From: Candidatus Heimdallarchaeota archaeon B3_Heim | GTDB lineage: Archaea; Asgardarchaeota; Heimdallarchaeia; Hodarchaeales; Hodarchaeaceae | Length of the DNA stretch: 32,000 nt | NCBI GenBank assembly: GCA_003144275.1 | Contig: NJBF01000016.1 | Coordinates: 1-32,000, forward strand | Reading direction: 5' to 3' | Shown: positions 264 through 27,689 of the stretch, one piece after another | How the letters are laid out: the number at the start of each line of letters is the position of its first letter | Position numbering within the stretch: position 1 is the stretch's first letter | Notes under the pieces: model-generated | Databases searched by the model: none | Told to the model about the DNA's origin: nothing | The model's input: only the letters and a program-made list of their open reading frames with translations | Program-made: the position numbers and the translations under genes

Positions 264-659
264 ATGGTAGATTCTGTTAAGAAATTCGTTCGTAAATCTG
301 ATATCGAAAAAGATTCAGCTAATTTTTCTGAATATTCAATAATATTACCAAAAAATTGGTTTGATGACATTAAAGAAGATGAAATAAATAGTGTAAAGAA
401 AAAAATAAGAGATACATTTGATTATAGACAAAAGAAAGTTAAATCTGATAACCCTAACTATTTTTATTTACTAAAACTATTTGCACTGGGTTATCGGTAT
501 CCTAGAATCAAACAATGGTTAGAGAATCTGATAAATGAATTTAGATTGAATCTTCATAGCAAATTCGAGGAAAATATTAGTCGTCAAACTCTGATTACAC
601 CTTCCCCTGTAATACGCAAAAAAGTCATTGTAATATTTCTATGCGTCAAACAGAGATGA
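264..659 (+). CDS. Hypothetical protein (possibly a gene fragment)
   Basis: Open frame 213..659 (GTG at 213, ATG at 264). K/N/I-rich with no recognisable motif; the 3' end overlaps the convergent membrane-protein gene by 14 bp. Confidence 0.4.
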   Translation: MVDSVKKFVRKSDIEKDSANFSEYSIILPKNWFDDIKEDEINSVKKKIRDTFDYRQKKVKSDNPNYFYLLKLFALGYRYPRIKQWLENLINEFRLNLHSKFEENISRQTLITPSPVIRKKVIVIFLCVKQR

Positions 660-1257: not shown

Positions 1258-1272
1258 TTACAAGTGATCCCC

Positions 1273-3156
1273 TTATTTATGATGATGATTATATGCCCTA
1301 CTAAGTGTACTACGGTAATTGGATGGAACTTGACTTTTAAACTGACTATGATCATCTGGTGCCCATTTGAGAAAGATTTCTTTTGTAATTCCTTTATTTG
1401 TTAGAATTGTAGCAAGATTAAAGCTAATGTATCTTAAGGAGGCTAATTCCTCAATAGTGTCCTTCAATTCTTCATCTTCATCTAGTTTCTTGTCTTCATC
1501 AACAAGATCTTCAGAGCTATATTTTAGATCGAATAGGATTTTTTGTTTAATTTTTTCAAAATTTCCTGTTGAAATTTCTGTATCGTCCATTATTTCTGCA
1601 TCAGAGAGTTTTTTTCTTTTAAGGAGTTTAATAACCAGTCTTTCAGTCTTTTTATCAACAATATTATAAACAAATGTATCTGCATCAGAAAAATTAAGAT
1701 ATTTGAAGGCTTTGCTTTTCAAATTTGACCTAGTAACAATATTAAATTGAAAAGCAGTCGATAAATCAATCAGGAATCCCCTAGCATCTATCATTTGATT
1801 AGATCCCCGTCTTGAATAACTTACAAACGAGAGTATTCTAAAATAAAGCATTACTTGAAAGAAATTTTCGTTAAAATCATCAGTTATAAAGTAAAATTGG
1901 TTCTTTGAGTTTTTTAGCATTTTTCCCAGCTGAGCTAAATATGATGCAATGATCTCTGTACTTACTTTTTTTAATACATTTGGTACTTGTTGACGATAAT
2001 ACTTAACACAAGTATCATATACCATTTTTTGAGTGATTTTCTCTTTATTTGGATTTTCATCACAGATGTCGTGCATGAATTTTAGAAAATCCCTAATCTT
2101 AAAACCTGCAAAGAAACATAAATTACGGAAAGTTATTTGATCCTTAAATAAGCTCAATAATTTTTTGTCCTCAAGAATATCGCTTAATCTATTGCTTAAA
2201 ATATTGCTATAAAATACTAGAAGACGATTGTCTGCAGTAGAACCTGAAAATATTCCTTTAAATTCTAATTCAAAATGTAATTCGCTAAATCCATGTTCTA
2301 TAAAGTTATAATTTGAAGTATCTACATGAAAACGACCTTCCATCACTGAAACTTTGCATTTTATCTCTAAACGACGATAAGGGCTTTCACTTAAATCAAT
2401 AATAATGGGAGCTAGTAAATTTTGCCCTTCTTCAGTTAACATCGAAAATTCATCGAATATTAATAAGAATTTATTTATTTAAGTTAATTCTGAGAGAATT
2501 GTTAAGATTTCGTAAAACTCTTTATCTAAGATATCTTTGAAACCTATTTGATCAAATAATTTTTTAATAAGGGGCTTAAATTCAATAGAATCAGACTTTA
2601 GGTTAACCAAATCAAAAGGTTTCTCACAGTTCTTTCGAATCTCATCGATTCGTTCCGTAACTTTTTCATTATGATCCTCTGGACTTTTAAGTCCAAAAAT
2701 ATCGGAAACTAGACCAAAAATACCTTTAAATCTATTCCAGAAGGACTTGCTTTTTGTATCGATATAAGATTTATACATATTAGTAATCTCAAGTATAATT
2801 AAAAACCGTAAGTAACGATGAAATAGCAATCTTCGTTGAACTGTATCCAGTCCGATCTGATCAGCTGCTTTAAACGTCTCTCGGATGTCCGAAAGATCAA
2901 TAAATATAGGTAAAATTCCTTCTTTTGAATATAAGTAATCAAATTTGGCTTTTTTCAGGTAAAGGGTTTTTCCGACCCCCCGAGCTCCAAAAATTATTGA
3001 GTTATCATAGTCTTTTACTCGGTCATATAGAATATGAAACCGTGATGCTAATGACCCTTTAGGAATGTTGAAGTTGTTATCTACATCCTCCTTTGTAGAT
3101 ATAGAATTTGCATTTCTTGCAGTAAACTTAGGTTTCAATTCTTTAAGTAAAACCAT
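1273..3156 (-). pseudogene. P-loop ATPase (ORC/CDC6-like or STAND-like) interrupted by one in-frame TAA at 2481-2479
   Basis: The two track ORFs (2479..3156 and 1273..2442) are in the same frame. The 36 nt between them read INKFLLIFDEFS (Walker B); Walker A GARGVGKT is in the upstream part. GGAGAGGA RBS precedes ATG 3156. About 627 codons if joined. Confidence 0.8.
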
Positions 3157-3244
3157 AAAATCCTCTCCATATTAACTTTTAGTATTACCTCAAATGAATT
3201 ATGACGTTAATCAAGAAATAACATTAATAGCACAAGTAATTAAT

Positions 3245-3425
3245 TCAGCTCATAACTTGAATGTGATATCCTATCTTTCTACTTAAAAATTCTGGATAGT
3301 CAACATTCAACATATGTATGGAGATCGGATCATCTCCAGCATGCCCAGTAGTTCTCCCCCCTGTATATAGCATCAATCAATAAGGGAGCATCTTTCAACT
3401 CCTCAAATTTAAATTTGTTCGTCAT
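3245..3425 (-). pseudogene. Frameshifted, truncated 5' remnant of an LpnPI/AspBHI (MspJI-family) 5mC-dependent restriction endonuclease
   Basis: ATG 3425 reads MTNKFKFEELKDAPLLIDAIYRG; removing one base in the G6 run (3356-3361) continues RTTGHAGDDPIS. This matches the family N-terminus as recalled for LpnPI (DLIIDAVYEGGSSGNASDDPIS). Similarity stops near 3320; that frame ends at TGA 3247-3245. Confidence 0.75.
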
Positions 3426-3808
3426 ATTGATACCATCTATAAAAATATTCTTTAAAGCTCGTTGTCCCTTCTAACATTTTTTTTGGCTAAATAATACAAT
3501 TATAATGAAGTTAATAATTATTCCTATAATTCGTTATTATAACCAGTATGGATATTTTTATGTGATATTAATTCTAATGTGATTATTAGTATCATAACAG
3601 TAGTAGTGTTATGCTTTTTTATATGCTTTTATTCTAAGATTATAGAAAGTTATTCTTAGACAAAATATTGATGGAATTAGAAAACATTTTTTTTCCTTGT
3701 TTTCAAAGCTATACAAATCTTTGTAAAATCTATCAAAAAATGGGTATGGAAATAAGGTTTCATTCTTCAAATTCTTAGAAAAAAGAAACTTACAATTTAT
3801 GGAACGTT

Positions 3809-3838
3809 GGTTATTGCGAGATTTCGCTTAAATTGTTG
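3809..3838 (+). repeat. Left terminal inverted repeat of the IS
   Basis: Core 3817-3838 (CGAGATTTCGCTTAAATTGTTG) matches the reverse complement of 5403-5424 at 20/22 positions. Both ends start with GG. Confidence 0.75.
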
Positions 3839-3978
3839 TAACTGGGCTATGGGGAGGAAAGTTGCTAAAAAACCATGAAAATCTTTGAAAATAAGTGAAT
3901 GACAACGATGAGAATAATGAAAGGGGATAAAAGAGAGGGAAAGACTTAAAGGGGTAATGAGATAATTTTTTCAATACA

Positions 3979-5373
3979 ATGAGTCAAACAACAACTGTGC
4001 AAATACAAGTGGGATCACAACCACTAAAGAAACGATTAAAATACAATCAATCTTTTCTATCACTTCCTATTCCTCTAACTTGTCCGTTGTGCCAAGAAAA
4101 TGATATCGAGATAGGTACTTGGGGTAGCTATTCGACGACTACGGGAGAAGTAAGACGCTTTCGATGTAAAAACTGTTTAGGAACTTTTAATCCCGCTAAA
4201 ATTCCTTTTTGGAAAGAGAATGTTCAAGAAATTATCTGGAAATTAACTCAACTCGTCATTAAGGACAGATTCTCGGTGAATGCTCTGGGTGAAATGTGGG
4301 GGGTGCCGGAAACAACCCTACGAACCTTGGTGACCGCTATAAAGGAGTTCCTTGCTATGAACTTGGAACGAGCCAAACAGTTACAGGAACGACTGGGTGT
4401 TCCTAGCACCACGGAAACCTCCTCATTACGTACCATTTTTTATGATGAAGGATTCCTCAAATTACTGGGTGCAAATGGCTTTATAATCTTTACGCTCGCT
4501 GCTGATGGTACGCCTATCAACGTAGCTATTGAACCTAAGCGGGATGCACAAACAATTCATGGCTATTTCGTGCAGGCTATGACCCAACTAGGGGGAATAG
4601 ATGTTATTGTGGGTGATGGAGCAGTAGCTATCCTAGCAGCTGCGAAAGCCCTTCGTCAATCACTGATTCTAGTTCAACACATCCATCAAGGGAAGGGAAA
4701 ACGTGCAAGAATCACTACTCTGGAACCTATTCCCAACCGAAAAGCTCTTTGGGATATTACGATTGAACTTCATACAGGAACACTTCTTTCCAACGTGGAA
4801 TCCAGGATTATGACTAGGAAGAAAAAGGTCTATCCAGCTAAATGGTCAACGCCAGTAATCAAGAATAAAAGTAGGATAAAATGTAATAAAGAAAATAAAT
4901 CTTCCTCCAAGAGGACTAGTATCCTAACACCAACTGAAGGGGCTGGTCCAACAACAGAAGTACATAAAAGAAGAACCAGTTTCCTAAAGGGTCATGCAAT
5001 AGTTTTAAAAACTGCTAGCAATCCTTACGAGCTAGAAATCAACTATATTCCTGGAGAATCTAATCTTAATTCCCCCGAGTGTCCATCTCTAACGGAGGTG
5101 TATCCAATATTGGCGAGAGTACAACAGGCGTTACCAGATCAGTTTATTAATTCGAATCGCGCAGAAGTCTTTAACTCCCTCCATGATCGTTATAACGTCT
5201 ATTGGGGGCGAAAAACCCTTATCCATGCAAACCGAGATCTTAAAGCTTGGACTGCTGTTACCTTCTTCCCTGAAGGATCTCGTGCTCTTCTTCATCGTCA
5301 ATCATGGCATATTCCGTATCGTTTGTTATTTCAGCTATGGCCATTGATGATTTCTAGGGTTAAGATTTCCTAG
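3979..5373 (+). CDS. DDE transposase with N-terminal Zn ribbon and HTH
   Basis: CPLC...RFRCKNC Zn ribbon (IS1 InsA-like); HTH FSVNALGEMWGVPETTLRTLV; FYDE (D156), VIVGDG (D213), NSNRAEVFNS (E396). Confidence 0.85.
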   Translation: MSQTTTVQIQVGSQPLKKRLKYNQSFLSLPIPLTCPLCQENDIEIGTWGSYSTTTGEVRRFRCKNCLGTFNPAKIPFWKENVQEIIWKLTQLVIKDRFSVNALGEMWGVPETTLRTLVTAIKEFLAMNLERAKQLQERLGVPSTTETSSLRTIFYDEGFLKLLGANGFIIFTLAADGTPINVAIEPKRDAQTIHGYFVQAMTQLGGIDVIVGDGAVAILAAAKALRQSLILVQHIHQGKGKRARITTLEPIPNRKALWDITIELHTGTLLSNVESRIMTRKKKVYPAKWSTPVIKNKSRIKCNKENKSSSKRTSILTPTEGAGPTTEVHKRRTSFLKGHAIVLKTASNPYELEINYIPGESNLNSPECPSLTEVYPILARVQQALPDQFINSNRAEVFNSLHDRYNVYWGRKTLIHANRDLKAWTAVTFFPEGSRALLHRQSWHIPYRLLFQLWPLMISRVKIS

Positions 5374-5402
5374 TTTTCTTTTTAAAGGTCAACGGTGGTG
5401 TT

Positions 5403-5432
5403 CAACAATTTAGACGAAATCTCGAGTCTGCC
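5403..5432 (-). repeat. Right terminal inverted repeat of the IS
   Basis: CAACAATTTAGACGAAATCTCGAGTCTGCC, starting 30 nt after the transposase stop. Confidence 0.75.
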
Positions 5433-5610
5433 AATACAGAAAACCTTTTTTGATTATTTGACAATGATCTAATATTAAAATTGATGGAAATTATTAGTAA
5501 CACTGTAGTACAAAATTCACTCGCCCTTTGGTTGGGTTCATGACAATAACCAAAAAATACTGCCCAGTATTCATTAATACTACCAAGGGTGAAATGATAA
5601 ACGATTCCTT

Positions 5611-5636
5611 TATAAGGGGGTATTATAAGGGGGTAT
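5611..5636. repeat. Exact 13-bp tandem duplication (TATAAGGGGGTAT x2) upstream of the GTPase gene
   Basis: Read directly: 5611-5623 equals 5624-5636. Confidence 0.85.
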
Positions 5637-5747
5637 ATTAGTAAATTTTTTCAAGTAGCACTCACATAATACTCTGAATAGTATCAGTTACTCAAAAGTA
5701 AATAAGTAACGAGGCTGGGATAAAAAAACAATTTGGGAACAACAAAA

Positions 5748-6440
5748 ATGAGTCCAGGAGCATCGACACGTCGCACACATCCTTTCTCAGGAACGAAAAT
5801 ACGTGCTAAGATCGTTCTAATTGGAGATGGAGGAGTTGGTAAAACCGCACTTCGACGTGCATGGTTAGGAGAAGGTTTTAAAACAGAGTATCTCATGACT
5901 ATTGGTGCTGATTTTGCATCACAGGAAGTAACTTACTATCATTCACCTACAAAAACCACTTATGATATAAAATTCCAAGTTTGGGATTTAGCTGGTCAAC
6001 CAAGATTTAAAGCGGTACGAGATCTATATTACCGTGGTGCTGTCGGAGCACTGTGCTTTTTTGATGTGACGAATCAGGAATCATATATGAATCTCGTTGA
6101 ATGGATTCAAAGTTACTGGTCTCTAAACGGAATTGGTAAGAGTCCCTTGCTTATTGTCGGTTCCAAATGTGATCTTCGGGATAATCCTGCTTTTCCCGCA
6201 CAAGTATCTGGGCATTATGGTAAAGAATACGCTGGAGAACTAACCAAACTGCTTAAAGATAAACTAGGGTTTGCTGTTCATTACCTAGAAACCTCAGCGA
6301 AAGACAGAATTAATGTTGATAAAGCTTTCAAGATATTGGCTGGAGAAATCATTTCTAGTTATTCTTTTCAGGAAAAAAAAAGGAATGATAAATCCACAAG
6401 TCAAAAAAAAATGATTTCTGACCAGATTCGTTCCCATTAG
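5748..6440 (+). CDS. Rab-like small GTPase (Ras superfamily)
   Basis: G1 GDGGVGKT, G2 EYLMTIGADF, G3 WDLAGQ, RabF-like YYRGA, G4 SKCD, G5 ETSAK. ATG 5748 preferred over TTG 5733. Confidence 0.93.
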   Translation: MSPGASTRRTHPFSGTKIRAKIVLIGDGGVGKTALRRAWLGEGFKTEYLMTIGADFASQEVTYYHSPTKTTYDIKFQVWDLAGQPRFKAVRDLYYRGAVGALCFFDVTNQESYMNLVEWIQSYWSLNGIGKSPLLIVGSKCDLRDNPAFPAQVSGHYGKEYAGELTKLLKDKLGFAVHYLETSAKDRINVDKAFKILAGEIISSYSFQEKKRNDKSTSQKKMISDQIRSH

Positions 6441-16067: not shown

Positions 16068-18512
16068 ATGTCGAAAAGTAGAGAAGAAAAAAATATTCTG
16101 TGGTTTGATGAACTCAGAATAGAAGATGTGCCCTTGGTCGGCGGAAAGAACGCTTCACTGGGCGAAATGTATCATCATCTAACCAGCAAAGGAGTGAAGA
16201 TTCCTAATGGTTTTGCAGTTACCGCAAGCGCTTATAGACACCTCCTCCGAGATGCCGGGATCGAGGATGCAATCAAAGACGCTTTAGCTGGGTTGGACAC
16301 TCATGATATCAGAAACCTCCAAAAAAGAGGAAGGAAAGTCCGTGAAATTATTCGTTATGCTAAATTACCTGCTGATCTCGAACAAGAAATCCGCAAAGCA
16401 TATCAAGAATTATCTGAAAAATCAGGTCAAGTGGATGTGGACGTTGCGGTACGATCCAGTGCTACAGCAGAGGATCTTCCTGATGCTTCGTTCGCAGGTC
16501 AACAAGAAACTTATTTAAATATCCGAGGTGAAGAATCTCTCTTAGATGCCTGTCGTTCATGCTTTGCCAGTTTATTTACTGATCGTGCAATCTCTTATCG
16601 TCAGGACAAAGGATTTGGTCATTTTGATGTTTACTTATCCATCGCAGTTCAATTAATGATTCGCTCAGATTCAGCTTCTTCTGGAGTTATATTTTCTATT
16701 GATACCGAGTCAGGTTTTGAAAGAGCGGTCTTTATTACCGGAGCTTACGGTCTTGGTGAAACCGTTGTCCAAGGTTCTGTGAATCCAGATGAATGGTATG
16801 TATTCAAACCAACTTTGAAACTTGGAAAGCGACCTATTGTTGGTAAACGATTGGGATCAAAAGAAATTATGATGGTTTACACTTCTGATAGTCGACGACC
16901 AGTTAAAATTGTTGATACACCAGATTCAATGCGAAAAACTTTCTGTGCTACGGATGACGAAGTTCTGAAGTTAGCTGAATGGACTGTAATTATTGAAGAT
17001 CATTACGGAAAGCATATGGATATTGAGTGGGCTAAAAACGGTGATGGTGACTATGAGGGTGATGGTGAGCTTTATATTGTACAAGCAAGACCTGAAACAG
17101 TTCATTCTCAAAAAGCTGCCAATATCATCGAGACTTATGTGCTCAAAGAAAGAAGCAAAGAACTAGTTCATGGTCAAGCCGTTGGTGCGAAGATCGGTCA
17201 AGGTGAAGTTAACGTCATTAAAACATCTGCTCGTATTCATGAGTTCAAGAAAGGACAAGTTCTTGTTACAGATATGACAGACCCCGATTGGGAACCAATC
17301 ATGAAGATTGCATCTGCAATTATAACAAACCGTGGTGGACGTACTTGTCACGCTGCTATTGTCTCACGTGAACTTGGTATTCCAGCAATTATTGGTACAG
17401 AAAACGCAACAAAAATTTTGAAAGATGGAATGAAAGTCACAGCTTCATGTGCAGAAGGACAAGATGGTATTGTTTTCGATGGTATTCTACCTTTTGAAAT
17501 CGATACAGTAGAACTTGATAATATACCTGAAACACGTACAAAAATTATGATGAACGTTGGTATACCAGAGAAAGCTTTTGACCAAGCACTAATTCCAAAT
17601 GACGGAGTTGGATTAGCCCGAGAAGAATTTATCATCAATTCATATATTGGTATTCATCCGCTTGCTTTACTTAACTACAAAGAACTCAAGGAAAAGGCTG
17701 AATCTGATCCTGAAATTCGTGAAATAGTCGCAAAAATTGATGCAAAAACTAATGCTTATCCAGATAAAGAAGAATTCTTTATTGAGCAGTTAGCAATGGG
17801 AATCGGCCGAATCGCAGCAGCATTCTATCCAAATGATGTCGTAGTCAGGATGTCGGACTTTAAAACAAACGAATACATCAACTTGGTTGGTGGAATTTTG
17901 TATGAACCAACAGAATCTAATCCAATGATTGGTTGGCGAGGTGCTTCTCGTTATTATGATGAGACCTATGCTCCTGCATATATCATGGAATGTAAAGCAA
18001 TTAAACGAGTCCGTGATGAAATGGGCTTAACCAATGTAATAACAATGATTCCCTTCTGTCGTACTGTTGAAGAGGGAAAGAAAGTTATCGAAACAATGGC
18101 AAAGGCTGGATTGAAACAAGGTGAGAATGGACTAGAAGTCTATGTAATGGCTGAAGTTCCTTCAAACGTCATTCAAGCTGATGGTTTTGCTGAGGTCTTC
18201 GACGGATTTTCGATTGGAAGTAACGACTTGACTCAATTAGCCCTTGGTCTTGATCGTGATTCTGAGTTAGTTGCCCATATCTATGATGAACGAAATGAAT
18301 CCGTAAAGAGATTAGTAAAATCGGTTATTGATGTTGCAAAAGCCCATAATCGAAAAATTGGTATTTGTGGACAAGCTCCTAGCGATTTTCCTGAATTTGC
18401 TACTTTCTTAGTCGAATGTGGAATTGACTCGATGAGTTTAAACCCTGATACTGTGGTAAAAACTAAACTCGATATTGCGAAAAAAGAGCAAGAATTAGGA
18501 ATTAAACCATAA
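16068..18512 (+). CDS. ppsA: Phosphoenolpyruvate synthase (pyruvate,water dikinase)
   Basis: GGKNASLGEM, AVRSSATAEDLP, SFAGQQETYLN, GGRTCHAAIVSRELG (phospho-His), SIGSNDLTQL, GICGQAPS. Confidence 0.98.
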   Translation: MSKSREEKNILWFDELRIEDVPLVGGKNASLGEMYHHLTSKGVKIPNGFAVTASAYRHLLRDAGIEDAIKDALAGLDTHDIRNLQKRGRKVREIIRYAKLPADLEQEIRKAYQELSEKSGQVDVDVAVRSSATAEDLPDASFAGQQETYLNIRGEESLLDACRSCFASLFTDRAISYRQDKGFGHFDVYLSIAVQLMIRSDSASSGVIFSIDTESGFERAVFITGAYGLGETVVQGSVNPDEWYVFKPTLKLGKRPIVGKRLGSKEIMMVYTSDSRRPVKIVDTPDSMRKTFCATDDEVLKLAEWTVIIEDHYGKHMDIEWAKNGDGDYEGDGELYIVQARPETVHSQKAANIIETYVLKERSKELVHGQAVGAKIGQGEVNVIKTSARIHEFKKGQVLVTDMTDPDWEPIMKIASAIITNRGGRTCHAAIVSRELGIPAIIGTENATKILKDGMKVTASCAEGQDGIVFDGILPFEIDTVELDNIPETRTKIMMNVGIPEKAFDQALIPNDGVGLAREEFIINSYIGIHPLALLNYKELKEKAESDPEIREIVAKIDAKTNAYPDKEEFFIEQLAMGIGRIAAAFYPNDVVVRMSDFKTNEYINLVGGILYEPTESNPMIGWRGASRYYDETYAPAYIMECKAIKRVRDEMGLTNVITMIPFCRTVEEGKKVIETMAKAGLKQGENGLEVYVMAEVPSNVIQADGFAEVFDGFSIGSNDLTQLALGLDRDSELVAHIYDERNESVKRLVKSVIDVAKAHNRKIGICGQAPSDFPEFATFLVECGIDSMSLNPDTVVKTKLDIAKKEQELGIKP

Positions 18513-18624
18513 TTCCCCCTTTTTTCATTTTTTCTATTTTCGCTCATTAGAGTTATATTTGGGAGCCAAAACGCTTCTTTTTTACAAATTTTTACCTTAT
18601 CTATTGTATAATAAACATTTGAAA

Positions 18625-19716
18625 TTATATCAATTCAATTTCTGGATTTAAAAAGGTTAAGAGATAAGGAATAAGGGTATCTGAGTTTTTTACTACTAGC
18701 ATTGATATTCCTCCAATATTTCCGGCTTCGAAGGGGATATAATTGATGTATCTTGCTTTTTCCCCTTCTAGTTCAATTGTTAGATGATTTATTCCGAATG
18801 TGGTCGGATAAGAAATTGAATATTGACCAGAATTTTCAGGAAGAGTTGATTCCCCCAAACTTCCTTGAAACTTGGGGAGAAGATAGGCCATTCGTTCTAA
18901 CGCTAAAATAAGTTCGCTATAACAGATTTCTATACATTTCAACGGAGACGGTGTTTTACCATAAGCAAATTGTGAGTAAAAGAGGGAGGATTTTCGATCT
19001 CTAAAGGTAGGTAAATCAATCAATAAAGATATCACTCCAGAGGCCCGTGCAATAGGGCCGGCTAGACTAGTGTCAACTATTTCTGAGTTTGAAAGAAAAT
19101 TCATACTATTCAATGCTTTCTTAAGCGTTACTGAGTTTTCGATGATTTTTCTAACTCTTTTTACCATTCTTCTTTGACCATTAATTGAACGCATAAACAT
19201 GGAGATGGTAGTATGATCAAGCTGCTTTAAGGCAATTCCAGGTCTCATCACACCAAAAGGAAATTGAGAGTCCCATAAATTCTCAAATATATCTTGTACC
19301 GATGTAACACCTTGATAAGCAGTTTTAGAAAGGTTGGTTATTGAAAAAATCCTGGATATCTTTACAAAAATGTTAAAAATCAACAAAACCTTTTCCCAAT
19401 TTAATAAAAATCCTCTATATAGAGCCATTTTCTCAGATATAAATTGACCCGTTAATTTTTCAATTGCTTCAGTTAAAAAGATTTGACGAGAAAGAGCTGC
19501 AAGCGGTTGATCCTTTTCTAAACTGGAAATGACATTCATGTACGATTGATTTTGTAATTGACTATTCAATGACTTTTGTTGAAGCCAAAAATCCTTTGAG
19601 CTGCCTGTAAGTGCTGCGTTTACCACTTCCGTGTATTTACTTGGGGTAACTTTGTATAAATCAAGAATTTCGTTTCCTCCTCGTATGGCCTCCTGCATAG
19701 AAATTGATTCTGACAT
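18625..19716 (-). CDS. Degenerate homolog of group-4 [NiFe]-hydrogenase large subunit / NuoD lacking the Ni-binding cysteines
   Basis: 363 aa, collinear with EchE-type proteins as recalled: TEAIEKLTG, GVMRPG, AGPIARASGV, and C-terminal TFLNPEIELI in place of (T/S)IDPCxxC. Confidence 0.75.
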   Translation of the reverse strand: MSESISMQEAIRGGNEILDLYKVTPSKYTEVVNAALTGSSKDFWLQQKSLNSQLQNQSYMNVISSLEKDQPLAALSRQIFLTEAIEKLTGQFISEKMALYRGFLLNWEKVLLIFNIFVKISRIFSITNLSKTAYQGVTSVQDIFENLWDSQFPFGVMRPGIALKQLDHTTISMFMRSINGQRRMVKRVRKIIENSVTLKKALNSMNFLSNSEIVDTSLAGPIARASGVISLLIDLPTFRDRKSSLFYSQFAYGKTPSPLKCIEICYSELILALERMAYLLPKFQGSLGESTLPENSGQYSISYPTTFGINHLTIELEGEKARYINYIPFEAGNIGGISMLVVKNSDTLIPYLLTFLNPEIELI

Positions 19717-19835
19717 TCCATTTTATAAAGTTCAGCTTCACTTCATCGATATATTGTACGGCAAATTTATCTATACAAGAGCGAAATTGTCGCTGCGATA
19801 GTTATTCACTTATTATCGAATTCAGAGGTGACAAT

Positions 19836-21935
19836 GTGGGTCTAAAGCCAGAACGTATGAGTATTGCCAAAATTACAGTTGATCACGCAGCAGGCCGATC
19901 TTTTCTGAGTAATATTGGGGCTAAACTTGAGCTAGAATTAATTGATTTAGTAAAGACAATCAGTATTGAGCCCAACCCCCTAACTGAGGAAGAATCCAAA
20001 ACAATAGCATTATTAGAAGAATTTTCGCGCCTTACCGCCTTAATTGATTCATTATCACTCACAAATAAGCATCAGAAGATTGATCTTGAGCGAGATGAGC
20101 TGGAGGAGATAAATTTCGAGGCTGAAAAATTATTTGGCCGAAATGAAAATATTATTACCGAGGTTGAGAACCTTAAAGCTCAGGAACTTAATTTAAAGGA
20201 GGTTCATACAGCAGTTCAATCACTCGAGGCATTACAGGGATTAGATATTCATGATGTCCAAGAATTTGGAACTGGTACTCATTTTTACGCAGTTCTTGGT
20301 TTTCTTAAAGGAATTCATAGCTTCCGCTTAGAAATGGCTCTCGATCAGTTAACTGGTGGTGAATTCATCTATAAGCCCATCAGTTCAGACAAAACCAAAA
20401 TTATATGTTTGATTGGCGTTATGAAGCGATTTAGTGGTCCTTTGGATCGCCTTCTGAGTGGACTTGGTTTTGAACCTATCACTATCCCTCCCAAAATTGT
20501 CGGTTCGCCTGAAGAAGCAAAAAGTAAAGCAGAATCTCTTCTAGAACACGTTGAATTAGATTATTTAACACTAAAAGAAAAAATTAACACTGAATTAGGG
20601 AATGAAATTAATAATATTCGAGCTATGACTGAGCAGCTTGAGATTGAATCCACTCGAATTTCTCTTCTTCAGCGAAGTCAGTTGAAAAATGAGAAGTATA
20701 TAATATGGTCTTGGATCCCTAAACGACAGATTAAATCACTTAAACGGATGACAGCTAAAATCGATTCTAGCATTACTTTAAACATCATTAAAAAACCTAA
20801 ACTTGAAAGTGAAGAATTTCCCACATCTATCCATAACAATATATATTCTCGGAATTATGAGAATCTAATTCATGGATTTGGAACCCCTGGATACAATGAA
20901 TGGGATCCTACCAAAATCCTGAGCATTTTAATGCCCATTTTCTTTGGTATTATGTTTGGAGACGTGGTTGATGGGTTTATTGTCTTTCTAATTGGTTTAT
21001 ATGGATTATCATTGAATGTAGATAAGTATTCCAAAAATTCAATGCTTTCCGAGCTTCAAACGTATTTCGATAAAGGTGGGCCTATCTTAGTTACCTTTGG
21101 ATTAACTGCTATGGTTTTTGGGTTTTTATTCGGAAGCTTTCGTGGTTTAGGCGGGGACCATGCGCATCATCTCGGTCTTGAACCCTTGTGGTTTAGTCCT
21201 GAGGCTGAAGGAGGCCAATTCGCATTATTGGAATTTGCTATAGTACTTGGCATACTTGTGATTTCACTTGCTTTGTTTATGCAGTTTATCCATCTGTTAT
21301 CACATAATAAATGGGAAGCCATATTTTTCCCTGGAATGTTCCTAATATTCTACATTTCACTATCATTTTTAGTCTTTGCTTACGGTCCCGATCCAACAAA
21401 GTGGATTTCGGAAACTACTGGAACTGTTAACCTAATCGCGTTACAAGATAAAACAGCTCAAAGTCTGATAGGTCATACTTTCGATCTTGACTGGGTTACC
21501 GAATTGGGTATACCTGTGTTCGCCATTGGTTCTGTTAGTTACCCCATGTTCTTTTTACTAACATCGTTTATATTAACGACATTATATCAGTTCAAACATG
21601 GTATGGATGGTATTAGTGAATGGTTAGATTACTTAATCACAATGATCTCAAACACGATATCCTTTGCTCGAATATTCGCATACAATATGGTGCATGGATC
21701 ATTATCTTTGGTTTTCATACAAATTTTTGCAGGTAGCGGAGAAGGATGGGCGGATGTATTACCAGGAATGATTTTAGGAGCTCCCATTGTTATCGGTCTA
21801 GAACTACTAGTATCTTTCTTACAATCCTTACGTCTCTGTTGGGTAGAATTTTTCGGAAAATTAGGTTATCTAGGGACTGGTCGTAAATTTATTCCATTTA
21901 AAGAAAACCGTAGGTTTACAGCAATTGCAGGCTAA
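19836..21935 (+). CDS. ntpI: A/V-type ATPase subunit I (a)
   Basis: LKPERM N-terminus, DPTKI...PIFFGIMFGDVVDG, SNTISFARIFA (essential Arg), LQSLRLCWVEFFGK. GTG 19836 follows a GAGGTGA RBS. Confidence 0.93.
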   Translation: MGLKPERMSIAKITVDHAAGRSFLSNIGAKLELELIDLVKTISIEPNPLTEEESKTIALLEEFSRLTALIDSLSLTNKHQKIDLERDELEEINFEAEKLFGRNENIITEVENLKAQELNLKEVHTAVQSLEALQGLDIHDVQEFGTGTHFYAVLGFLKGIHSFRLEMALDQLTGGEFIYKPISSDKTKIICLIGVMKRFSGPLDRLLSGLGFEPITIPPKIVGSPEEAKSKAESLLEHVELDYLTLKEKINTELGNEINNIRAMTEQLEIESTRISLLQRSQLKNEKYIIWSWIPKRQIKSLKRMTAKIDSSITLNIIKKPKLESEEFPTSIHNNIYSRNYENLIHGFGTPGYNEWDPTKILSILMPIFFGIMFGDVVDGFIVFLIGLYGLSLNVDKYSKNSMLSELQTYFDKGGPILVTFGLTAMVFGFLFGSFRGLGGDHAHHLGLEPLWFSPEAEGGQFALLEFAIVLGILVISLALFMQFIHLLSHNKWEAIFFPGMFLIFYISLSFLVFAYGPDPTKWISETTGTVNLIALQDKTAQSLIGHTFDLDWVTELGIPVFAIGSVSYPMFFLLTSFILTTLYQFKHGMDGISEWLDYLITMISNTISFARIFAYNMVHGSLSLVFIQIFAGSGEGWADVLPGMILGAPIVIGLELLVSFLQSLRLCWVEFFGKLGYLGTGRKFIPFKENRRFTAIAG

Positions 21936-21972
21936 GATAAATAGGATTAAAAAAGATTAAGAATGTGAAAAT

Positions 21973-23052
21973 ATGGCTTTTCATCAGATCCGTGAAGCAA
22001 AGGACTATTCTTTTATTAACGCAAGGATCAAAGCGCGTCGAAGCCAGCTCCTATCCACAAGTGATTATGAGCACATTCTAGGTATTTCTTTGGAAGATGG
22101 AATTTCCGTACTGCTTAATCATCCCCGCTATCATGATGCATTTGAAGATATTTCATATCAGTCGAGTCAACTCTCATTAATGATAGAAAAGTCATTAAAT
22201 GACTCAATTGAGGTTGAAATACATTCATTAATAAAGAATCTTCCTAATACCGATCAAGAATTTTTATTATTCTATTTGAAAAAAAATTATCTGAAAATCA
22301 TTGAAGATATTCTCCATAAATTGCATAACTCGGATACCAAACCTTTAGATTTAACAAATCGCTATATTACCTCTCCTGAGGAACGTGTGGAACTAATCCA
22401 TGCAACACAAGTCACCTCAATAGAAGAGCTCGCAGAAACAGTATCAGAAAAGTGGTTGCGTAAGGCAATTCTCTCCTCGTTAGATAAATACAATGAAACA
22501 CAAAATATCCTAGAGATCGTTTATCGAATAGAACGTGCATTCTATGACGAATTATGGAGAGAAAAGATAGGAAATCTCAAGAGAATGAGTAAATCCATCG
22601 CTGAGAAAGTCATTGGAATAGAAATAGACTTGAACAATATCAACATTGTTCTTAGACAAAAAGCCATGCATAAAATTGTTTCTTCAATCGATTCCCTAGT
22701 TATACCCCTTTACTACCGTTTAAAATCGGATTTTGATGATTTGCTGAATGCCCCGTCACTTGCAAGTGCATTCTCGGTACTAGAATCAACCTATTACGTT
22801 GATTTTGCCCGAAAGGTTCATAATAGTTATACCATGAAAAATACGATCGAAATGCTGGAACAGATTCAACAAGAATACTTCTTACAGTCTCTAACAAGTA
22901 TTATGGCAGGTTATCCTTTCCATCTTGGTATTTTACTAAGTTATTACCACTATCGAAAGCAAGAGGTTGAAAACCTCCGTATTATCTTCGAGTCAAAAAT
23001 TAAAGATATAGATATTGAATTTACACGAAATTTACTCATTTACAGCAAATGA
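21973..23052 (+). CDS. ntpC: A/V-type ATPase subunit C (d)
   Basis: YSFINARIKARRSQLL, EIDLNNINIVLR, YHYRKQEVENLRII; lies between the I and K genes. Confidence 0.9.
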   Translation: MAFHQIREAKDYSFINARIKARRSQLLSTSDYEHILGISLEDGISVLLNHPRYHDAFEDISYQSSQLSLMIEKSLNDSIEVEIHSLIKNLPNTDQEFLLFYLKKNYLKIIEDILHKLHNSDTKPLDLTNRYITSPEERVELIHATQVTSIEELAETVSEKWLRKAILSSLDKYNETQNILEIVYRIERAFYDELWREKIGNLKRMSKSIAEKVIGIEIDLNNINIVLRQKAMHKIVSSIDSLVIPLYYRLKSDFDDLLNAPSLASAFSVLESTYYVDFARKVHNSYTMKNTIEMLEQIQQEYFLQSLTSIMAGYPFHLGILLSYYHYRKQEVENLRIIFESKIKDIDIEFTRNLLIYSK

Positions 23053-23117
23053 TGTATGAAAATGATTCATAGAATCCAATAGAAAATTTAAAATGATAAT
23101 TTAAAAGGTGAAAAAAC

Positions 23118-23474
23118 ATGAACACAACACAATTAAAACAGATTTTTAAGGTAAAAATCGTTGTAGGCACATTAGTATTAGTCTTTCTAAGTCTTACGAT
23201 CGCTGTCTCTTCAGTTGTTGCCAGTCCAGAGTCAACACAATCAGTTACTCAAGAGGATTCCAACTGGGGAATTGGTTTAGGAGCAGGTATTGCTATTGGT
23301 TTAGCTGGTTTAGGAGCAGGACTTGGGCTTGGATCAGCAAGCTCTGCTGCAATTGGGGCAATAGCAGAAAGGCCAGAAGTATTCGGAAGAACGATAATTT
23401 TCATTGCGTTCATAGAAGGAATAGGAGTCTTCGGGTTCGTTATAGCATTCCTACTTTCCCTATCATTAGGTTGA
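23118..23474 (+). CDS. ntpK: A/V-type ATPase proteolipid subunit K (c), single hairpin with N-terminal signal-like extension
   Basis: GLAGLGAGLGLG, IAERPEVFG, FIAFIEG (ion-binding Glu). Confidence 0.92.
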   Translation: MNTTQLKQIFKVKIVVGTLVLVFLSLTIAVSSVVASPESTQSVTQEDSNWGIGLGAGIAIGLAGLGAGLGLGSASSAAIGAIAERPEVFGRTIIFIAFIEGIGVFGFVIAFLLSLSLG

Positions 23475-23550
23475 TTGGTATAGTCAGGATTAATAACGTA
23501 ATTTTGTTAATGGATCTTTGCTTTTGAACCAGATTAAACAGTTCGATATA

Positions 23551-23567
23551 GGGAAAAGGTTTTTCCC
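23551..23567. terminator. Hairpin GGGAAAA-GGT-TTTTCCC between convergent genes
   Basis: Perfect 7-bp stem read directly; function inferred. Confidence 0.4.
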
Positions 23568-23651
23568 TCCATAAAACAGCTAATTTCAAACCTTGAAATG
23601 CAAAGATCCAAAAATCCCCCTATCTCTTTATAATTCCGACCAAATATAGTT

Positions 23652-23966
23652 CTACATTTCTTCTTCTTTTTCACTTTTAAGAATCAAGCTACTAAGTGTT
23701 TTCTGTTGTCTTGACACTAGAAGGGCATCTTTTTTTGCTTGATATTGTACAATAACATATAGTTCTATTATGGCAAGGATGAAAAAAACAATGACGGTCA
23801 ATATAAGTACAAATTCACTCAGGGGAGATTCAAAATATTTTGAAAGGAAACTCCCTATAAAAACTCCAAGAATAACCATAATAGGCAAATTGAAAGCCGA
23901 AGCTGCAATATTAGCTGGAGTGCCTAGCTGCCGTCTTCTTTTTTGTTTAATTGTCATGGTAGTCAA
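23652..23966 (-). CDS. Small two-TM protein resembling the AtpZ/AtpI (ATPase gene 1) family
   Basis: FNLPIMVILGVFIGSFLSKYFESP followed by a second TM helix. TTG start overlaps the stop of the Fe-S subunit gene (alternative ATG 23957). Confidence 0.6.
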   Translation of the reverse strand: MTTMTIKQKRRRQLGTPANIAASAFNLPIMVILGVFIGSFLSKYFESPLSEFVLILTVIVFFILAIIELYVIVQYQAKKDALLVSRQQKTLSSLILKSEKEEEM

Positions 23967-24454
23967 CTAAATTGTCTCTCATTCACATCATATATACTCT
24001 CGATGATTTGTTTATATCCCGTACAACGACAGATAATTCCGTTTATCATCTCTTGTATCTCTGAAAAAGTGAATCGTTGCTGTTGAGTAAGAATATAATG
24101 ACCCATAATAAGGAATGCTCCTGTACAAAATCCACATTGAACTGCACCGTGTTTGATGAAAGCGTTTTGCAGCTCATTTGCGTTTTCTTTAGTAGAAATT
24201 CCTTCCACTGTGACGATCTTGCAGTTCATTGCTTCTTGGGCTAGAACTAAACACGATTTTACTGGTTTATCATCAAGAAGAACTGTACAAATTCCGCAAT
24301 CTCCAGCCCAACAAGCCGCTTTTACTGATTTCACCTGAAACTGATTCCGTAAAACATCTAATAACGTCTCATTGGAAGTGATATTCGTAAGTCGTTTCTG
24401 GCCATTAAGTGTGATAGAAAGTGTTTTCATTCCTAGAGTATCCTCTTTAATCAT
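23963..24454 (-). CDS. Xanthine dehydrogenase-family small subunit, 2x[2Fe-2S] (CoxS/CutS-like)
   Basis: CWAGDCGICTV...SC and QCGFC...CRCTGY. Confidence 0.95.
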   Translation of the reverse strand: MIKEDTLGMKTLSITLNGQKRLTNITSNETLLDVLRNQFQVKSVKAACWAGDCGICTVLLDDKPVKSCLVLAQEAMNCKIVTVEGISTKENANELQNAFIKHGAVQCGFCTGAFLIMGHYILTQQQRFTFSEIQEMINGIICRCTGYKQIIESIYDVNERQFS

Positions 24455-25317
24455 TCTAATACCTCCTTGAGTATAGTTCTAGTAACCATTTCAGCCATAT
24501 GCATTCTATATTTCTTACTGGCACGTATATCATCAATTGGTCTCAAGATTGGAGTAATTACATCCCATATATCTCTGAATTTTGCTTCATCAAGTTCCTT
24601 TCTCTCTCGGACAATATTATCGGTTATATCGATCAATAGAGGAGTTGGCGCCATGGCGGTATAAGATAAGCACGTCTTTTTTTCATTGTGAAAGCAAGCT
24701 ACGCCAACTAGCGCTAAGTCTTCTGAACTTCGCTTCATCTTCTTAAAAGAGGATCTTGATCCCTTCTTAGGACGCGGTATACTAATGGAAGTAATAATTT
24801 CATCTGAAGTTAAGAGATTACGTTTTACACCAGTAAAAAACTCATTGATTGGGACTGTCCGTTGCCCCTTTGCTAAAGATGAAATATTAATTTTTGCATC
24901 TAAAACGTAAAGAGAAGCTGCAGAATCAGCTGCAGGTGACGATGTACCAATATTTCCACCAATAGTAGCCCGATATCGAAGAATTTCGTCCGCTAAATCT
25001 GCCAAGGATTGATATAATGCGAGATATTCCTCTTTTATAATTGGGATTGTAAGAACTTCTATAATAGGTGTGACAGCACCAATTTTAAGTTCTTGCTCCG
25101 TTATTCTTATAGTTTGAAGTTCTGGTATCATTTTCAGATTAATAAGAACTTTTGGTTGAATTAATCGATGACGTAGTTCGATTAATAGATCTGTTCCCCC
25201 TGCAAGTAATCGTGCTTTATTTTGATACTGATCAAGAAGCTCTAAAGCTTCTTTTAATGATGAAGGAGTAATTAAATTAAATTTTGGAAGACTTGAGTAT
25301 GAAATGATGTTCTTCAT
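24451..25317 (-). CDS. Xanthine dehydrogenase-family FAD subunit (CoxM/CutM-like)
   Basis: LLAGGTDLL, RYRATIGGNI, ADSAASL, DDIRASKKYR; ATGA overlaps with its neighbours. Confidence 0.95.
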   Translation of the reverse strand: MKNIISYSSLPKFNLITPSSLKEALELLDQYQNKARLLAGGTDLLIELRHRLIQPKVLINLKMIPELQTIRITEQELKIGAVTPIIEVLTIPIIKEEYLALYQSLADLADEILRYRATIGGNIGTSSPAADSAASLYVLDAKINISSLAKGQRTVPINEFFTGVKRNLLTSDEIITSISIPRPKKGSRSSFKKMKRSSEDLALVGVACFHNEKKTCLSYTAMAPTPLLIDITDNIVRERKELDEAKFRDIWDVITPILRPIDDIRASKKYRMHMAEMVTRTILKEVLE

Positions 25318-27689
25318 TGTTTTTCCTCCATCAATTTTTTCTTTAAAGAGGCAATTAACTCAGGCCTCTGCTTTTGAATTTCAGACCAGACTCTTTCTGA
25401 AGTAATTGGTAAATCAAATATTTGTACATTAATTGCATCTGCAATTGCATTTCCTAATGCGGCTGGTACACCAATCATTGTTAGTTCTCCAATACCTCGT
25501 GCTCCGTGTGGACCATCCTCTTGGGGATTTTCAATAAAGTATGAAGAGAATTCCTTTGGAATATCTCCAGGTCGGGCAATAATATAATCAACAAAGCTGG
25601 GATTAAGCAACTCCCCGGTCTTAGAATATTGTAGTTGCTCAGATGTGGCAATAGAAAGGGCCATGACACTGCCGCCAATTACTTGCCCTTCACATAATTG
25701 TGGATTGATAGCTTTCCCTATATCAAAAGCAGAGACTATTTGATTGATTTTAATTTCTCCAGTTAATGCATTAAGTTCAAGTTCGACACCTTGAGCTCCA
25801 AAAGTTTCAAATATGGCAGGATTGCCAGCTCCTGTGTCAGGATCCAGGATAGTCATTTTAGCAATATATTTCCCATGACCAATAACAGGCCCACCAATGG
25901 ATTCGCCTGTTGGATACATATAGCCCATCACCACTTCAGAGAGACTCAAGTGATTCCACGGTTCACCTTTAGGAAAAATTAATTCGTTTTTAATGACTAA
26001 ATCATCTTTTATCACTCTTAATACTTGAGAAGCAGTTTCAAATATCTGTTCTTTTGCATTAAGACAGGCATTTTGGACAGCATTTCCATCCATAAATAGA
26101 GATCGTGATCCAACGGTTTGCCATGTATAGGCATCTCTATCAGTATCTCGATCTCCTCTAATTTTTACTTTCTCAATTGGTAAACCAAGTTCATCTGCCG
26201 CAATTTGTGCTAAGCTAGTTAACGTACCTTGACCCATTTCTGAGGTTCCAACTGAAAGTATAATACTCCCATCTTCATTAAACTTAACGTAAGATGAAGA
26301 GGCACTGTTTGGGGGTTGTGCAGGTCCTTTCATAAAACCAGCAATCCCAACACCTCTAAAAATCCATGGTTTAAGGGGAGGAGTCTTTTTCCTTTTCTTA
26401 GTGAGTTCACTCCAAACTTTATCTAAACATTCATCGATACTGCCAGCATCCTCTCTCAGACGATATTGATTCCCTGTAATCCCCGAACCTGGCTTTAAAG
26501 TATTTATCTTGCGAAAAGTAACTGACCCTAATCCTAATTTTTTTGCGATGATTTCATTTTGTCGTTCGATTACCCAATGAAGCTCTAAATGCCCAAAACC
26601 ACGAAAAGCAGTCGCATAAGGTTTATTCGTATAAACCGTGTAAGAATCTGATTTAATATGATCTATTTCGTACGGGCCGATTGAAACATAGCCAGCAGCT
26701 CTGCCTACATTGACCGCATAGTCAGCAAAGGCTCCTGAATCCCAAATATATTCAATCTGCTGAGCTGTTATTTTCCCTTGCTTAGTAACACCTGTCTTCA
26801 GATTTGCTACCATTCCAACTCGTATCGGAGCGCTTCTAAAGTTCTCTTCTCTTGTCAAATGTAATTTAACAGGACGATTGTTCGCTTTTCGAGAGAGTAA
26901 AACGACCAAAGGTTCAAAATTAAGTCCTGCTTTTCCTCCAAATCCACCTCCAAGGAGAGGTGAGTATACAGTAATATTAGATGTCGATGTTGCAAAAGTA
27001 ATACCCAATAGATAACGTACGGTGAATGGTGATTGGGCAGAGGACCATACTTCTATAGTTCCGTCTTTACGGTAATGTCCTATAGAAACTATAGGTTCTA
27101 AGTATGCATGGGAGATTTGGGGCATACTATAACTGTGTTCGAAGATTTCATCAGCTTGTTTAAACCCATCTTCTATGTTACCTTTTCGTAATTTAAAATG
27201 ATTTGCTACATTTGTTCCTGGAATAGGATGAAAAGCGGGAGAATGATTGTAATCAGCCATTTTTTCATGAACTAATATTTGTTTGGAGTCCATTGCTTTA
27301 ACAGGGTCTAAAATAGGTTCTAATGGCTCATATTCTATCTTTATTAATGATAGAGCTTCTTCAGCAATAGTCTCTGATTCTGCAGCTACCGCCACAACAG
27401 GTTGACCAATCCAAACAACTTTTTCGACTGCGAGAATATCCCGGTCTCCAGCGTAAAGACCAATTTTCACAGGCCAATCCTTTCCAGTAACAATAGCAAC
27501 AACCCCAGGCAATATTTCTGCTTCGGCTGTGTCTATTGAAAGTATTTTTCCGTGTGCGATTGGAGAGGCAAGAAATTTTCCTGTAAGCATATTTGGAATG
27601 TAATCTATGTCAACTGCATACATCGCCTGGCCAGATACTTTATCTCTTGCATCTTTTCGGGGAACTGACTGACCTACATACTCATTCAT
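25314..27689 (-). CDS. Xanthine dehydrogenase-family molybdopterin-binding large subunit; substrate unknown
   Basis: GGGFGGK, AFRGFG, GTSEMGQG, GSRS, AINPQLCEGQVIGG, GARGIGE. Confidence 0.93.
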   Translation of the reverse strand: MNEYVGQSVPRKDARDKVSGQAMYAVDIDYIPNMLTGKFLASPIAHGKILSIDTAEAEILPGVVAIVTGKDWPVKIGLYAGDRDILAVEKVVWIGQPVVAVAAESETIAEEALSLIKIEYEPLEPILDPVKAMDSKQILVHEKMADYNHSPAFHPIPGTNVANHFKLRKGNIEDGFKQADEIFEHSYSMPQISHAYLEPIVSIGHYRKDGTIEVWSSAQSPFTVRYLLGITFATSTSNITVYSPLLGGGFGGKAGLNFEPLVVLLSRKANNRPVKLHLTREENFRSAPIRVGMVANLKTGVTKQGKITAQQIEYIWDSGAFADYAVNVGRAAGYVSIGPYEIDHIKSDSYTVYTNKPYATAFRGFGHLELHWVIERQNEIIAKKLGLGSVTFRKINTLKPGSGITGNQYRLREDAGSIDECLDKVWSELTKKRKKTPPLKPWIFRGVGIAGFMKGPAQPPNSASSSYVKFNEDGSIILSVGTSEMGQGTLTSLAQIAADELGLPIEKVKIRGDRDTDRDAYTWQTVGSRSLFMDGNAVQNACLNAKEQIFETASQVLRVIKDDLVIKNELIFPKGEPWNHLSLSEVVMGYMYPTGESIGGPVIGHGKYIAKMTILDPDTGAGNPAIFETFGAQGVELELNALTGEIKINQIVSAFDIGKAINPQLCEGQVIGGSVMALSIATSEQLQYSKTGELLNPSFVDYIIARPGDIPKEFSSYFIENPQEDGPHGARGIGELTMIGVPAALGNAIADAINVQIFDLPITSERVWSEIQKQRPELIASLKKKLMEEKQ

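Follow-up and report, generated by a model that had tools for sequence, protein, structure and literature searches.

What is the task of a protein that has kept the fold of a redox-enzyme subunit and none of its chemistry? The question is raised by a gene on the minus strand of a 32,000-nucleotide stretch (positions 1 to 32,000 of contig NJBF01000016.1, hereafter the window) from the metagenome-assembled genome (MAG) of Candidatus Heimdallarchaeota archaeon B3_Heim (GCA_003144275.1), a member of the Hodarchaeales. Its product, termed the NuoD-fold protein here, would be a stand-alone pseudo-enzyme which retains the fold of NuoD and of [NiFe]-hydrogenase large subunits but nothing of their chemistry. 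Judging from the sequence, its function is almost certainly not catalysis. Binding would have taken the place of catalysis, and it is likely, albeit well short of certain, that the protein serves as a binding adaptor or scaffold, in former times within a membrane redox setting and now, in the lineage of the window, alone.

Profiles and the modelled structure, taken together, identify the fold of the product of open reading frame (ORF) 18625-19716 unambiguously as that of NuoD and [NiFe]-hydrogenase large subunits. In a single-sequence hidden Markov model (HMM) search, Pfam PF00346 gave E 3e-4 and 20.3 bits, which is under its 24-bit cut-off, and NCBIfam TIGR01962 (NuoD) matched residues 52-228 with E 4e-8 and 32.5 bits at a curated threshold of 459 bits. 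By these curated scores the protein is not a NuoD. The profile of its family retrieved MbhL of P. furiosus (6cfw_L, E 3e-7) as the top match in the PDB, followed by several NuoD chains. A comparison by hhalign with NuoD and the hydrogenase large subunit of the same genome yielded a probability of 98.8% (E 6.6e-17, 312 columns), residues 46-360 being collinear with residues 41-357 of this NuoD. The AlphaFold2 (AF2) model calculated from the family alignment is a confident, compact fold (predicted local distance difference test, pLDDT, 88.9; predicted template modelling score, pTM, 0.88) which resembles NuoD and HycE (Foldseek TM score 0.74-0.77). With VIA-align, superposition on HycE and Nqo4 gave Z 31-32 and a root-mean-square deviation (rmsd) of 2.9-3.0 Å over 329-341 residues, the best structural match being HycE 7z0s_E (Z 32, 2.9 Å, 341 residues). 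TM scores of 0.80-0.84 were obtained with ESM Atlas clusters of hydrogenase large subunits and NuoD, those of the hydrogenase large-subunit clusters being 0.82-0.84. A feature-based search of the ESM Atlas gave no usable match, and as the Atlas's own model of the protein was poor (pLDDT 0.32), its structural neighbours were set aside as meaningless. The large-subunit fold that is typical of group-4 [NiFe]-hydrogenases is thus present, and the match to the NiFe/NuoD fold on which the original prediction hinged was found. This prediction, which had been made from the sequence alone, described the protein as collinear with EchE-type subunits from end to end. Collinearity was confirmed for residues 46 to 360 or so, while the first 45 or so residues could not be aligned. 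A further amendment to the prediction is the strand, which is minus.

Within this fold, the sites of metal and quinone binding are gone. In the profile alignment, ERMCGIC of MbhL corresponds to E67-K68-D69-Q70-P71-L72-A73 (residue numbers of motif positions refer to the 363-residue frame), both N-terminal cysteines being replaced by Q70 and A73. According to hhalign, the C-terminal DPCxxC motif falls on N357-P358-E359-I360, where the consensus of the family reads FLNPEI. All four Ni/Fe-ligand cysteines are therefore lost, as had been proposed. The ligand motifs of group-4 hydrogenases, RxCGxCxxxH and DPCxxCxx(H/R), occur in no member of the family, their positions being occupied by KDQPLA and NPEIEL in the window. 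The predicted exchange of RICGIC for SLEKDQP was right in substance and two to three residues out of register; that of DPCxxC for NPEIELI was reproduced. HRGxEK aligns to about Q46-N51 and the quinone tyrosine of NuoD (DRLCY in the NuoD of this genome) to P71, which bears out the reported absence of HRGxE and of the NuoD quinone-site motifs.

The N-terminal residues that could not be aligned are helical in the AF2 model and variable in the family, and the region is shortened in distant members. Neither the model nor hhalign disclosed the GPQHPxxHG sheet motif in these first 45 or so residues, although the NuoD proper and the true hydrogenase subunit of the same genome each possess the segment. 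In complex I, this segment docks on NuoB and NuoH. Of the residues that form the quinone site of NuoD, both the tyrosine of DRxxY and the histidine-bearing GPQHPxxHG loop are missing; the NuoD encoded by the same genome has both. The window's protein contains two cysteines and two histidines; at no position is either residue conserved throughout the family. Because one member (P0020) is devoid of any cysteine, a thiolate-bound cofactor can be dismissed as a property of the family. Most members are basic, the isoelectric point (pI) being 7.8-9.7 in 15 of 17 versus 5.6-6.3 in genuine, acidic NuoD of the same class. Some positions have nonetheless been preserved across the family, about 17 of them invariant and about 17 near-invariant.

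The gene itself is intact. Inspection of the ORF list and the translation verified that the minus-strand frame 18625-19716, which had been predicted to be undisrupted, is open over 363 codons and the only one between these coordinates. Its true start is probably the second ATG at 19698, resulting in a protein of 357 amino acids, because M7, which is encoded there, is invariant across 18-24 orthologues, the six codons 5' of it are unconserved in the family (and interrupted in L061) and the TATA-box-like element TTTATAAA lies about 25 nucleotides (nt) upstream. Boxes reading TTTATAAA or TTTATTAAA are found at equal distance in the close orthologous loci L047, L008, L063 and L061. The spacing between this box and the conserved ATG suggests a leaderless archaeal transcript; TTTATAAA would accordingly be the putative promoter and the transcript may begin near 19698. 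The protein is soluble and basic (pI about 8.7), and the base composition of its gene is native to the genome.

Relatives of the protein are rare. Only about 25 were detected in libraries of 5.8 and 1.8 billion proteins, all of them 330-363 residues long (21-90% identity), annotated as hypothetical and derived from metagenome bins of Hodarchaeales or 'Heimdallarchaeota'. When 400 Asgard genomes were surveyed, a full-length gene turned up in the window's GTDB genus, where 19 out of 21 further species have it. In G062 the copy is cut by the end of a contig, in G077 (80% complete) no match was found, and among the other approximately 380 Asgard genomes there was none at E 1e-85 or better. Every congeneric copy found (19 of full length and the one in G062) is single and free of stop codons. 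The gene is under purifying selection in every congener in which it was found. For eight unsaturated pairs, the ratio of nonsynonymous to synonymous substitution rates (dN/dS; Nei-Gojobori, NG86) was 0.14-0.22, compared to 0.13-0.22 for AtpC, 0.06-0.11 for CoxL and 0.03-0.07 for the phosphoenolpyruvate (PEP) synthase/PPDK encoded nearby. Its intact orthologous frames, a dN/dS well below 1 and the confident fold mark it as a functional gene. It is nevertheless the fastest-evolving gene of its block, with 25-35% identity where PEP synthase shows 83-85%, enolase 77-80% and CoxL 72-75%. NuoB of the genus remains at least 75% identical, substitution in the NuoD-fold gene being several-fold faster. 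In two runs labelled metatranscriptomic, 5-7% of the sampled words were recovered; they covered mostly the 3' end of the PEP synthase gene and came from related organisms. A 222-nt contig matched positions 19218-19439 without differences, but its source run was probably DNA.

The genome of the window (94% complete) contains two canonical loci, an 11-subunit Nuo operon and a group-4 [NiFe]-hydrogenase (Table 1), the large subunit of the latter carrying a C-terminal extension after DPCIGCMDR. A third NuoB or NuoH was not found genome-wide, as every match fell on these two loci, which are located on other contigs. Among the scanned ORFs of the window (six ORFs of at least 100 residues at 213-6440 were left out), no genes for NuoB, NuoH or a hydrogenase small subunit were found, which agrees with the predicted lack of hydrogenase or complex I subunit genes nearby. 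Likewise, partner genes for small or membrane subunits were not found beside the NuoD-fold gene in the 20 orthologous loci compared, and its description as an orphan held. The gene is no part of a nuoA-N operon, since it is flanked by the genes of PEP synthase and AtpI and the Nuo operon lies on contig C93; nor is it encoded together with the NuoB-like small subunit and membrane subunits that accompany group-4 hydrogenases. Co-folding of the genome's own NuoB with the NuoD-fold protein scored 0.05 where the mark was 0.32, a result that speaks neither for nor against an association.

When NuoD and hydrogenase subunits of Asgard archaea were included in a tree, the family came out as monophyletic, with a stem as long as about 2.5 substitutions per site, and nested in neither the NuoD nor the hydrogenase group, its base being a polytomy with other long branches. 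Because of this long isolated branch and the polytomy, ancestry from either group cannot be claimed, and the suggested descent from an EchE-type hydrogenase rather than from NuoD was not established. The top match to the family profile from outside the family was a cysteine-less NuoD-like protein of another Heimdallarchaeial family (locus L064, E 9e-21), whose gene is directly followed by one for a NuoH-like membrane protein. At this locus a gene for a protein of 209 residues without assigned function comes next, the three genes lying away from any full nuo operon, and L065 is arranged in the same way. The L064 locus may encode a reduced complex of two or three subunits and be the nearest outside relative of the NuoD-fold family; its NuoD-like protein may represent an intermediate.

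A possible trace of an earlier membrane setting was detected elsewhere in the genus. Among about 20 congeners, 12 carry a gene for a mini-protein of about 105-120 residues directly 3' of the NuoD-fold gene and on its strand, the two genes overlapping by 4 bp or lying 4 bp apart. The mini-protein comprises one N-terminal transmembrane helix, which was modelled confidently, and the C-terminal pattern CP(V/T)EAI-x13-16-CLGxxCxxC, whose four cysteines are invariant. In ferredoxins, the last cysteine of one motif and the three of the next bind a single [4Fe-4S] cluster, and it is probable that the mini-protein likewise holds one predicted cluster. Its cysteine domain was modelled by AF2 with a pLDDT of only 62-72, and one member gave a sub-threshold Pfam match to the Fe-S-binding domain of LdpA (E 7e-4). 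Only 15 relatives, all hypothetical, are contained in a large protein library, a distribution as narrow as that of the NuoD-fold family. Because the two genes are paired in these 12 congeners, the NuoD-fold family probably originated as the large-subunit partner in a minimal redox module that was tethered to the membrane.

On the gene tree, the mini-protein is found in three or more of the deep lineages and is missing from two well-supported clades, that of the window included. In the window, 112 bp separate the stop codons of the NuoD-fold and PEP synthase genes, and a homologue was not found anywhere in the genome by a cleaned HMM search (best E 0.25). A candidate on the window's contig, antisense to PEP synthase, was rejected as an artefact of a seed that contained an antisense ORF from L010. 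The simplest reading of this pattern is an ancestral two-gene module composed of the NuoD-fold protein and a membrane Fe-S anchor, the anchor having been lost in the window's clade, where the remaining protein presumably acts alone or with some other partner. The opposite polarity, a later gain of the mini-protein, is possible. A more specific proposal is rather doubtful. It envisages a hitherto undescribed minimal membrane module peculiar to Hodarchaeales in which the ligand-free NuoD-fold subunit is combined with a single-pass mini-ferredoxin containing a single [4Fe-4S] cluster and the old active-site or quinone cavity serves as a pocket; in the window's clade, the anchor would have been lost and the protein repurposed as a soluble binder. 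If true, the module might be a redox- or ligand-sensing or an electron-adaptor device.

In all 20 orthologous loci, the NuoD-fold gene is arranged tail-to-tail with the PEP synthase/PPDK gene. Its 5' side occurs in three states, which are intermingled on the gene tree. In most loci, that of the window among them, the gene stands head-to-head with an atpI-atpC-atpK cassette, followed by a small membrane ORF and by coxS-M-L on the strand of the NuoD-fold gene. In four loci (L053, L055, L056 and L010), coxL-M-S is located directly upstream on the same strand, and in two (G069 and G070) an EamA transporter gene takes this position. A syntenic block of POR, HAD, EamA, Cox, the NuoD-fold gene, PPDK, enolase, DAGK, HdrD and Etf extends across the genus. 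Adjacency consequently says little on function because the whole region is a syntenic backbone. In some congeners that have the gene, a presumed partner was not detected. G069 (90% complete) and G070 (94% complete) have kept the NuoD-fold gene without any match to CoxL at E 1e-100 or better, and in five congeners (86-95% complete) that possess the gene PF00346 finds only NuoD and no hydrogenase. A role tied to a hydrogenase or to the molybdenum hydroxylase is argued against by these species.

Some further observations were made on the neighbouring genes. The atp cassette with the small membrane ORF is present at the site in most congeners and absent in at least six. Since both states are scattered over the tree, the cassette seems to be mobile, or to be lost, as a unit. 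The window's atpI and atpC are the sole copies of the genome and lie apart from the A1 genes. Between window positions 16068-27689 and locus L063 of G060, the synonymous divergence (dS) was 0.08-0.11 for atpC and coxM and 1.0-1.2 for the NuoD-like gene, coxL and the PEP synthase gene. This mosaic suggests that part of the block has recently recombined between lineages. Besides, many congeneric genomes contain a distant CoxL paralogue (33-35% identity to CoxL of the window) with a single in-frame TGA. Such recurrence fits a putative selenocysteine codon or systematic read-through better than independent pseudogenes.

Table 1. Location of the NuoD-fold gene, its former motif positions and the other features described in the text. 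Coordinates without a contig or locus prefix refer to the window.
Feature	Location	Strand	Remarks
Cofactor-less NuoD-fold coding sequence	18625..19698	-	357-aa product beginning at the conserved Met; stop codon at 18625-18627
Mechanical ORF of the NuoD-fold gene	18625..19716	-	ATG at 19716, 363 aa
C-terminal DPCxxC position, codons N357-I363	18628..18648	-	now NPEIELI; hhalign and family alignments
N-terminal RxCGxC (hydrogenase) / DRxxY (NuoD) position, codons K68-A73	19498..19515	-	now KDQPLA; MbhL 6cfw_L profile alignment and hhalign
N-terminal ~45 residues	19575..19698	-	helical in AF2 model, variable in family; hhalign starts at residue 46
TATA-box-like element TTTATAAA	19723..19730	-	~25 nt upstream of ATG 19698; read directly
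atpI, atpC, atpK and small ORF with two transmembrane helices	19857-23966	atp genes +; small ORF (23652-23966) -	membrane sector a-d-c
11-subunit nuoA-B-C-D-H-I-J-K-L-M-N operon	C93:80100-92200		complete, without NuoEFG; NuoD Cys-less, keeps GPQHP and DRLCY
Group-4 [NiFe]-hydrogenase	C58:53700-57100		NuoC-large-subunit fusion; RICGIC, HRGIE and DPCIGC kept
Four-Cys mini-protein genes	L120:8357-8692; L123:8997-9326	+; +	also in L048, L049, L050, L054-L058, L062, L032
NuoD-like gene of L064	L064:9878-11005	+	Cys-less, HRGxE-less, GPQHP-less, basic; PF00346 E 9e-38; other Heimdallarchaeial family
NuoH-like membrane gene of L064	L064:11087-12142	+	directly after the NuoD-like gene; PF00146 E 1e-18
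TGA-bearing CoxL paralogues, examples	G063:C185:10618-12939; G060:C79:33209-35527; G071:C7:73691-76009

The original prediction of a non-catalytic repurposing named the right class, given the lost ligands, the purifying selection and the orphaned gene; which of the offered roles applies, scaffold, regulator or decoy subunit, was not established. Several points weigh against an adaptor or scaffold with a membrane-bound past. Rapid evolution at a dN/dS near 0.2 would likewise be compatible with a protein that is only marginally important. Incompleteness of the MAGs weakens the arguments from species that have the gene and no hydrogenase or CoxLMS, and the polytomy at the base of the family means that the mini-protein may be a later acquisition and not ancestral. 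Among the other explanations, an alternative or decoy D-subunit that docks on NuoB-NuoC-NuoI-NuoH (or on an Mbh-type hydrogenase) instead of NuoD or the large subunit is unlikely. Such a protein would be an assembly placeholder or a silencer of the quinone or H2 site. Its overall fold is indeed that of the subunit to be replaced, and its occurrence is compatible with this role inasmuch as 20 of the genus's 22 genomes contain the Nuo operon (NuoB), the remaining two being 70-71% complete. However, variable helices stand in place of the GPQHP segment, which contacts NuoB and NuoH in complex I, a protein with a conserved interface would not be expected to fall to 25-35% identity in a genus whose NuoB stays at 75% or above, the protein is basic and genuine NuoD acidic, and in the orthologous loci compared the gene is never near nuo or mbh genes. 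It is also highly improbable that the protein is a maturation scaffold of the HupK/HoxV kind, which would hold the Fe(CN)2CO moiety or chaperone the apo-large subunit of the group-4 [NiFe]-hydrogenase. HupK and HoxV are large-subunit-like, enzymatically inactive proteins that serve cofactor assembly (PMC12134894), and a genuine [NiFe] large subunit with RICGIC and DPCIGC is encoded in the genome. Against this stands that the family has no conserved cysteine, and one member none at all, so that nothing could ligate the iron moiety. Moreover, a hydrogenase large subunit was not detected in five congeners that possess the gene, hyp or hydrogenase genes are not found nearby, and no HupK-type NCBIfam model matched at E 10 or better.

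Two explanations draw on the neighbouring genes. The protein might be an accessory or adaptor of the CoxL-CoxM-CoxS-type molybdenum hydroxylase, linking it for instance to an electron acceptor or to the membrane. In the four loci without the atp cassette mentioned above, the gene directly follows coxS on the same strand with gaps of about 30-260 bp, and in the window and most other loci only the cassette intervenes between it and the upstream coxLMS genes. This role is improbable, as two congeners without a CoxL match have retained the gene next to the EamA transporter gene, the synteny of the whole block makes adjacency little informative, and the protein has no site for a redox cofactor. A function as membrane-sector factor of the A/V-type ATPase, co-regulated with atpI-atpC-atpK through a shared divergent promoter region, is very improbable. 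In the window and the majority of orthologous loci, the gene does lie head-to-head with atpI at a distance that varies between about 120 and 370 bp, and the window's atpI and atpC are the genome's only copies. But in at least six congeners the cassette is off-site and the gene is still located beside PEP synthase, and the interspersed arrangements make the adjacency look like an insertion that was repeatedly gained or lost. A link to the adjacent ATPase genes I, C and K, as contemplated in the original prediction, was thus not established. There remains a duplicated NuoD or hydrogenase gene drifting to loss, an idea that would suit the fastest-evolving gene of the block, the disappearance of all catalytic residues and the lack of expression support. 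It is barely credible in view of copies that are all uninterrupted, even where identity has dropped to about 25% (in one the contig ends within the gene), the dN/dS values, the invariant and near-invariant positions, the confident AF2 fold and the conserved TATA-like box. A decaying pseudogene, the outcome that would have spoken against the original prediction, was rejected on the intact frames across the genus and the dN/dS of 0.14-0.22. The role of a binding adaptor or scaffold is the one that is preferred here.

How does such a protein compare with known members of the superfamily? With NuoD/Nqo4/NDUFS2 it shares the fold over about 330-340 residues (Z 31, rmsd 2.9-3.0 Å to Nqo4 of T. thermophilus and the mitochondrial subunits), the R..E of the RGFLLNxEK helix, RPG, GPxxR and P...N near the C-terminus, and the lack of Ni/Fe cysteines. 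It differs by having neither the quinone tyrosine nor an equivalent of HRGxEK nor GPQHPxxHG, by its basic character and by its location outside a nuo operon. The large subunits of group-4 hydrogenases (MbhL, HycE, EchE) can be aligned collinearly from the L1 motif to the C-terminus. What separates the NuoD-fold protein from them is the absence of the four ligand cysteines, of HRGxE, of the C-terminal extension for endopeptidase processing and of neighbouring genes for small, NuoC-like or membrane subunits. Large subunits of the Ehr type (energy-converting-hydrogenase-related complexes) and the Mbx type, reportedly treated by Marreiros et al. in 2013 and Vignais & Billoud in 2007, are said to have lost some or all Ni/Fe ligands; their genes reportedly accompany those of NuoB-, NuoH- and NuoL-like partners, and the subunits are believed to remain part of a membrane complex. 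The loss of cysteines is common to both, whereas an operon with NuoB-, NuoH- and antiporter-like subunits is missing around the orphaned NuoD-fold gene. A closer analogue than these subunits is the cysteine-less NuoD-like gene of L064 with the NuoH-like gene behind it. HupK and HoxV are likewise stand-alone, inactive large-subunit-like proteins and set the precedent for a fold re-used without catalysis. The Fe(CN)2CO moiety is borne by HoxV, whose gene belongs to hydrogenase/hyp clusters in Pseudomonadota (PMC12134894). Neither cysteines conserved for this moiety nor a hydrogenase/hyp cluster were found for the NuoD-fold family; this separation from HupK/HoxV follows published descriptions of the two. 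Taken together, the comparisons indicate that the family is a new, orphaned and ligand-free branch of a known superfamily, which would work like no characterized member.

A published description of the family was not found in the literature. The main survey of Asgard hydrogenases and complex I selected sequences by two CxxC motifs (bioRxiv 10.1101/2024.07.04.601786). The family has apparently gone unnoticed because filters of this kind would drop it. In the same preprint, Hodarchaeales are reported as the closest relatives of eukaryotes. The significance of the family is limited by its narrow distribution in one genus, and its role is inferred from sequence. As regards the fold, a wider point can be made. 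NuoD is the textbook example of an enzyme fold put to a new use, its NiFe site having given way to a quinone site. The NuoD-fold family would be a further step, in which the fold has been long-lived with no cofactor site and outside complex I and hydrogenase operons. The pairing with the mini-protein in half of the genus may offer a testable handle on the role of such 'dead' large subunits.

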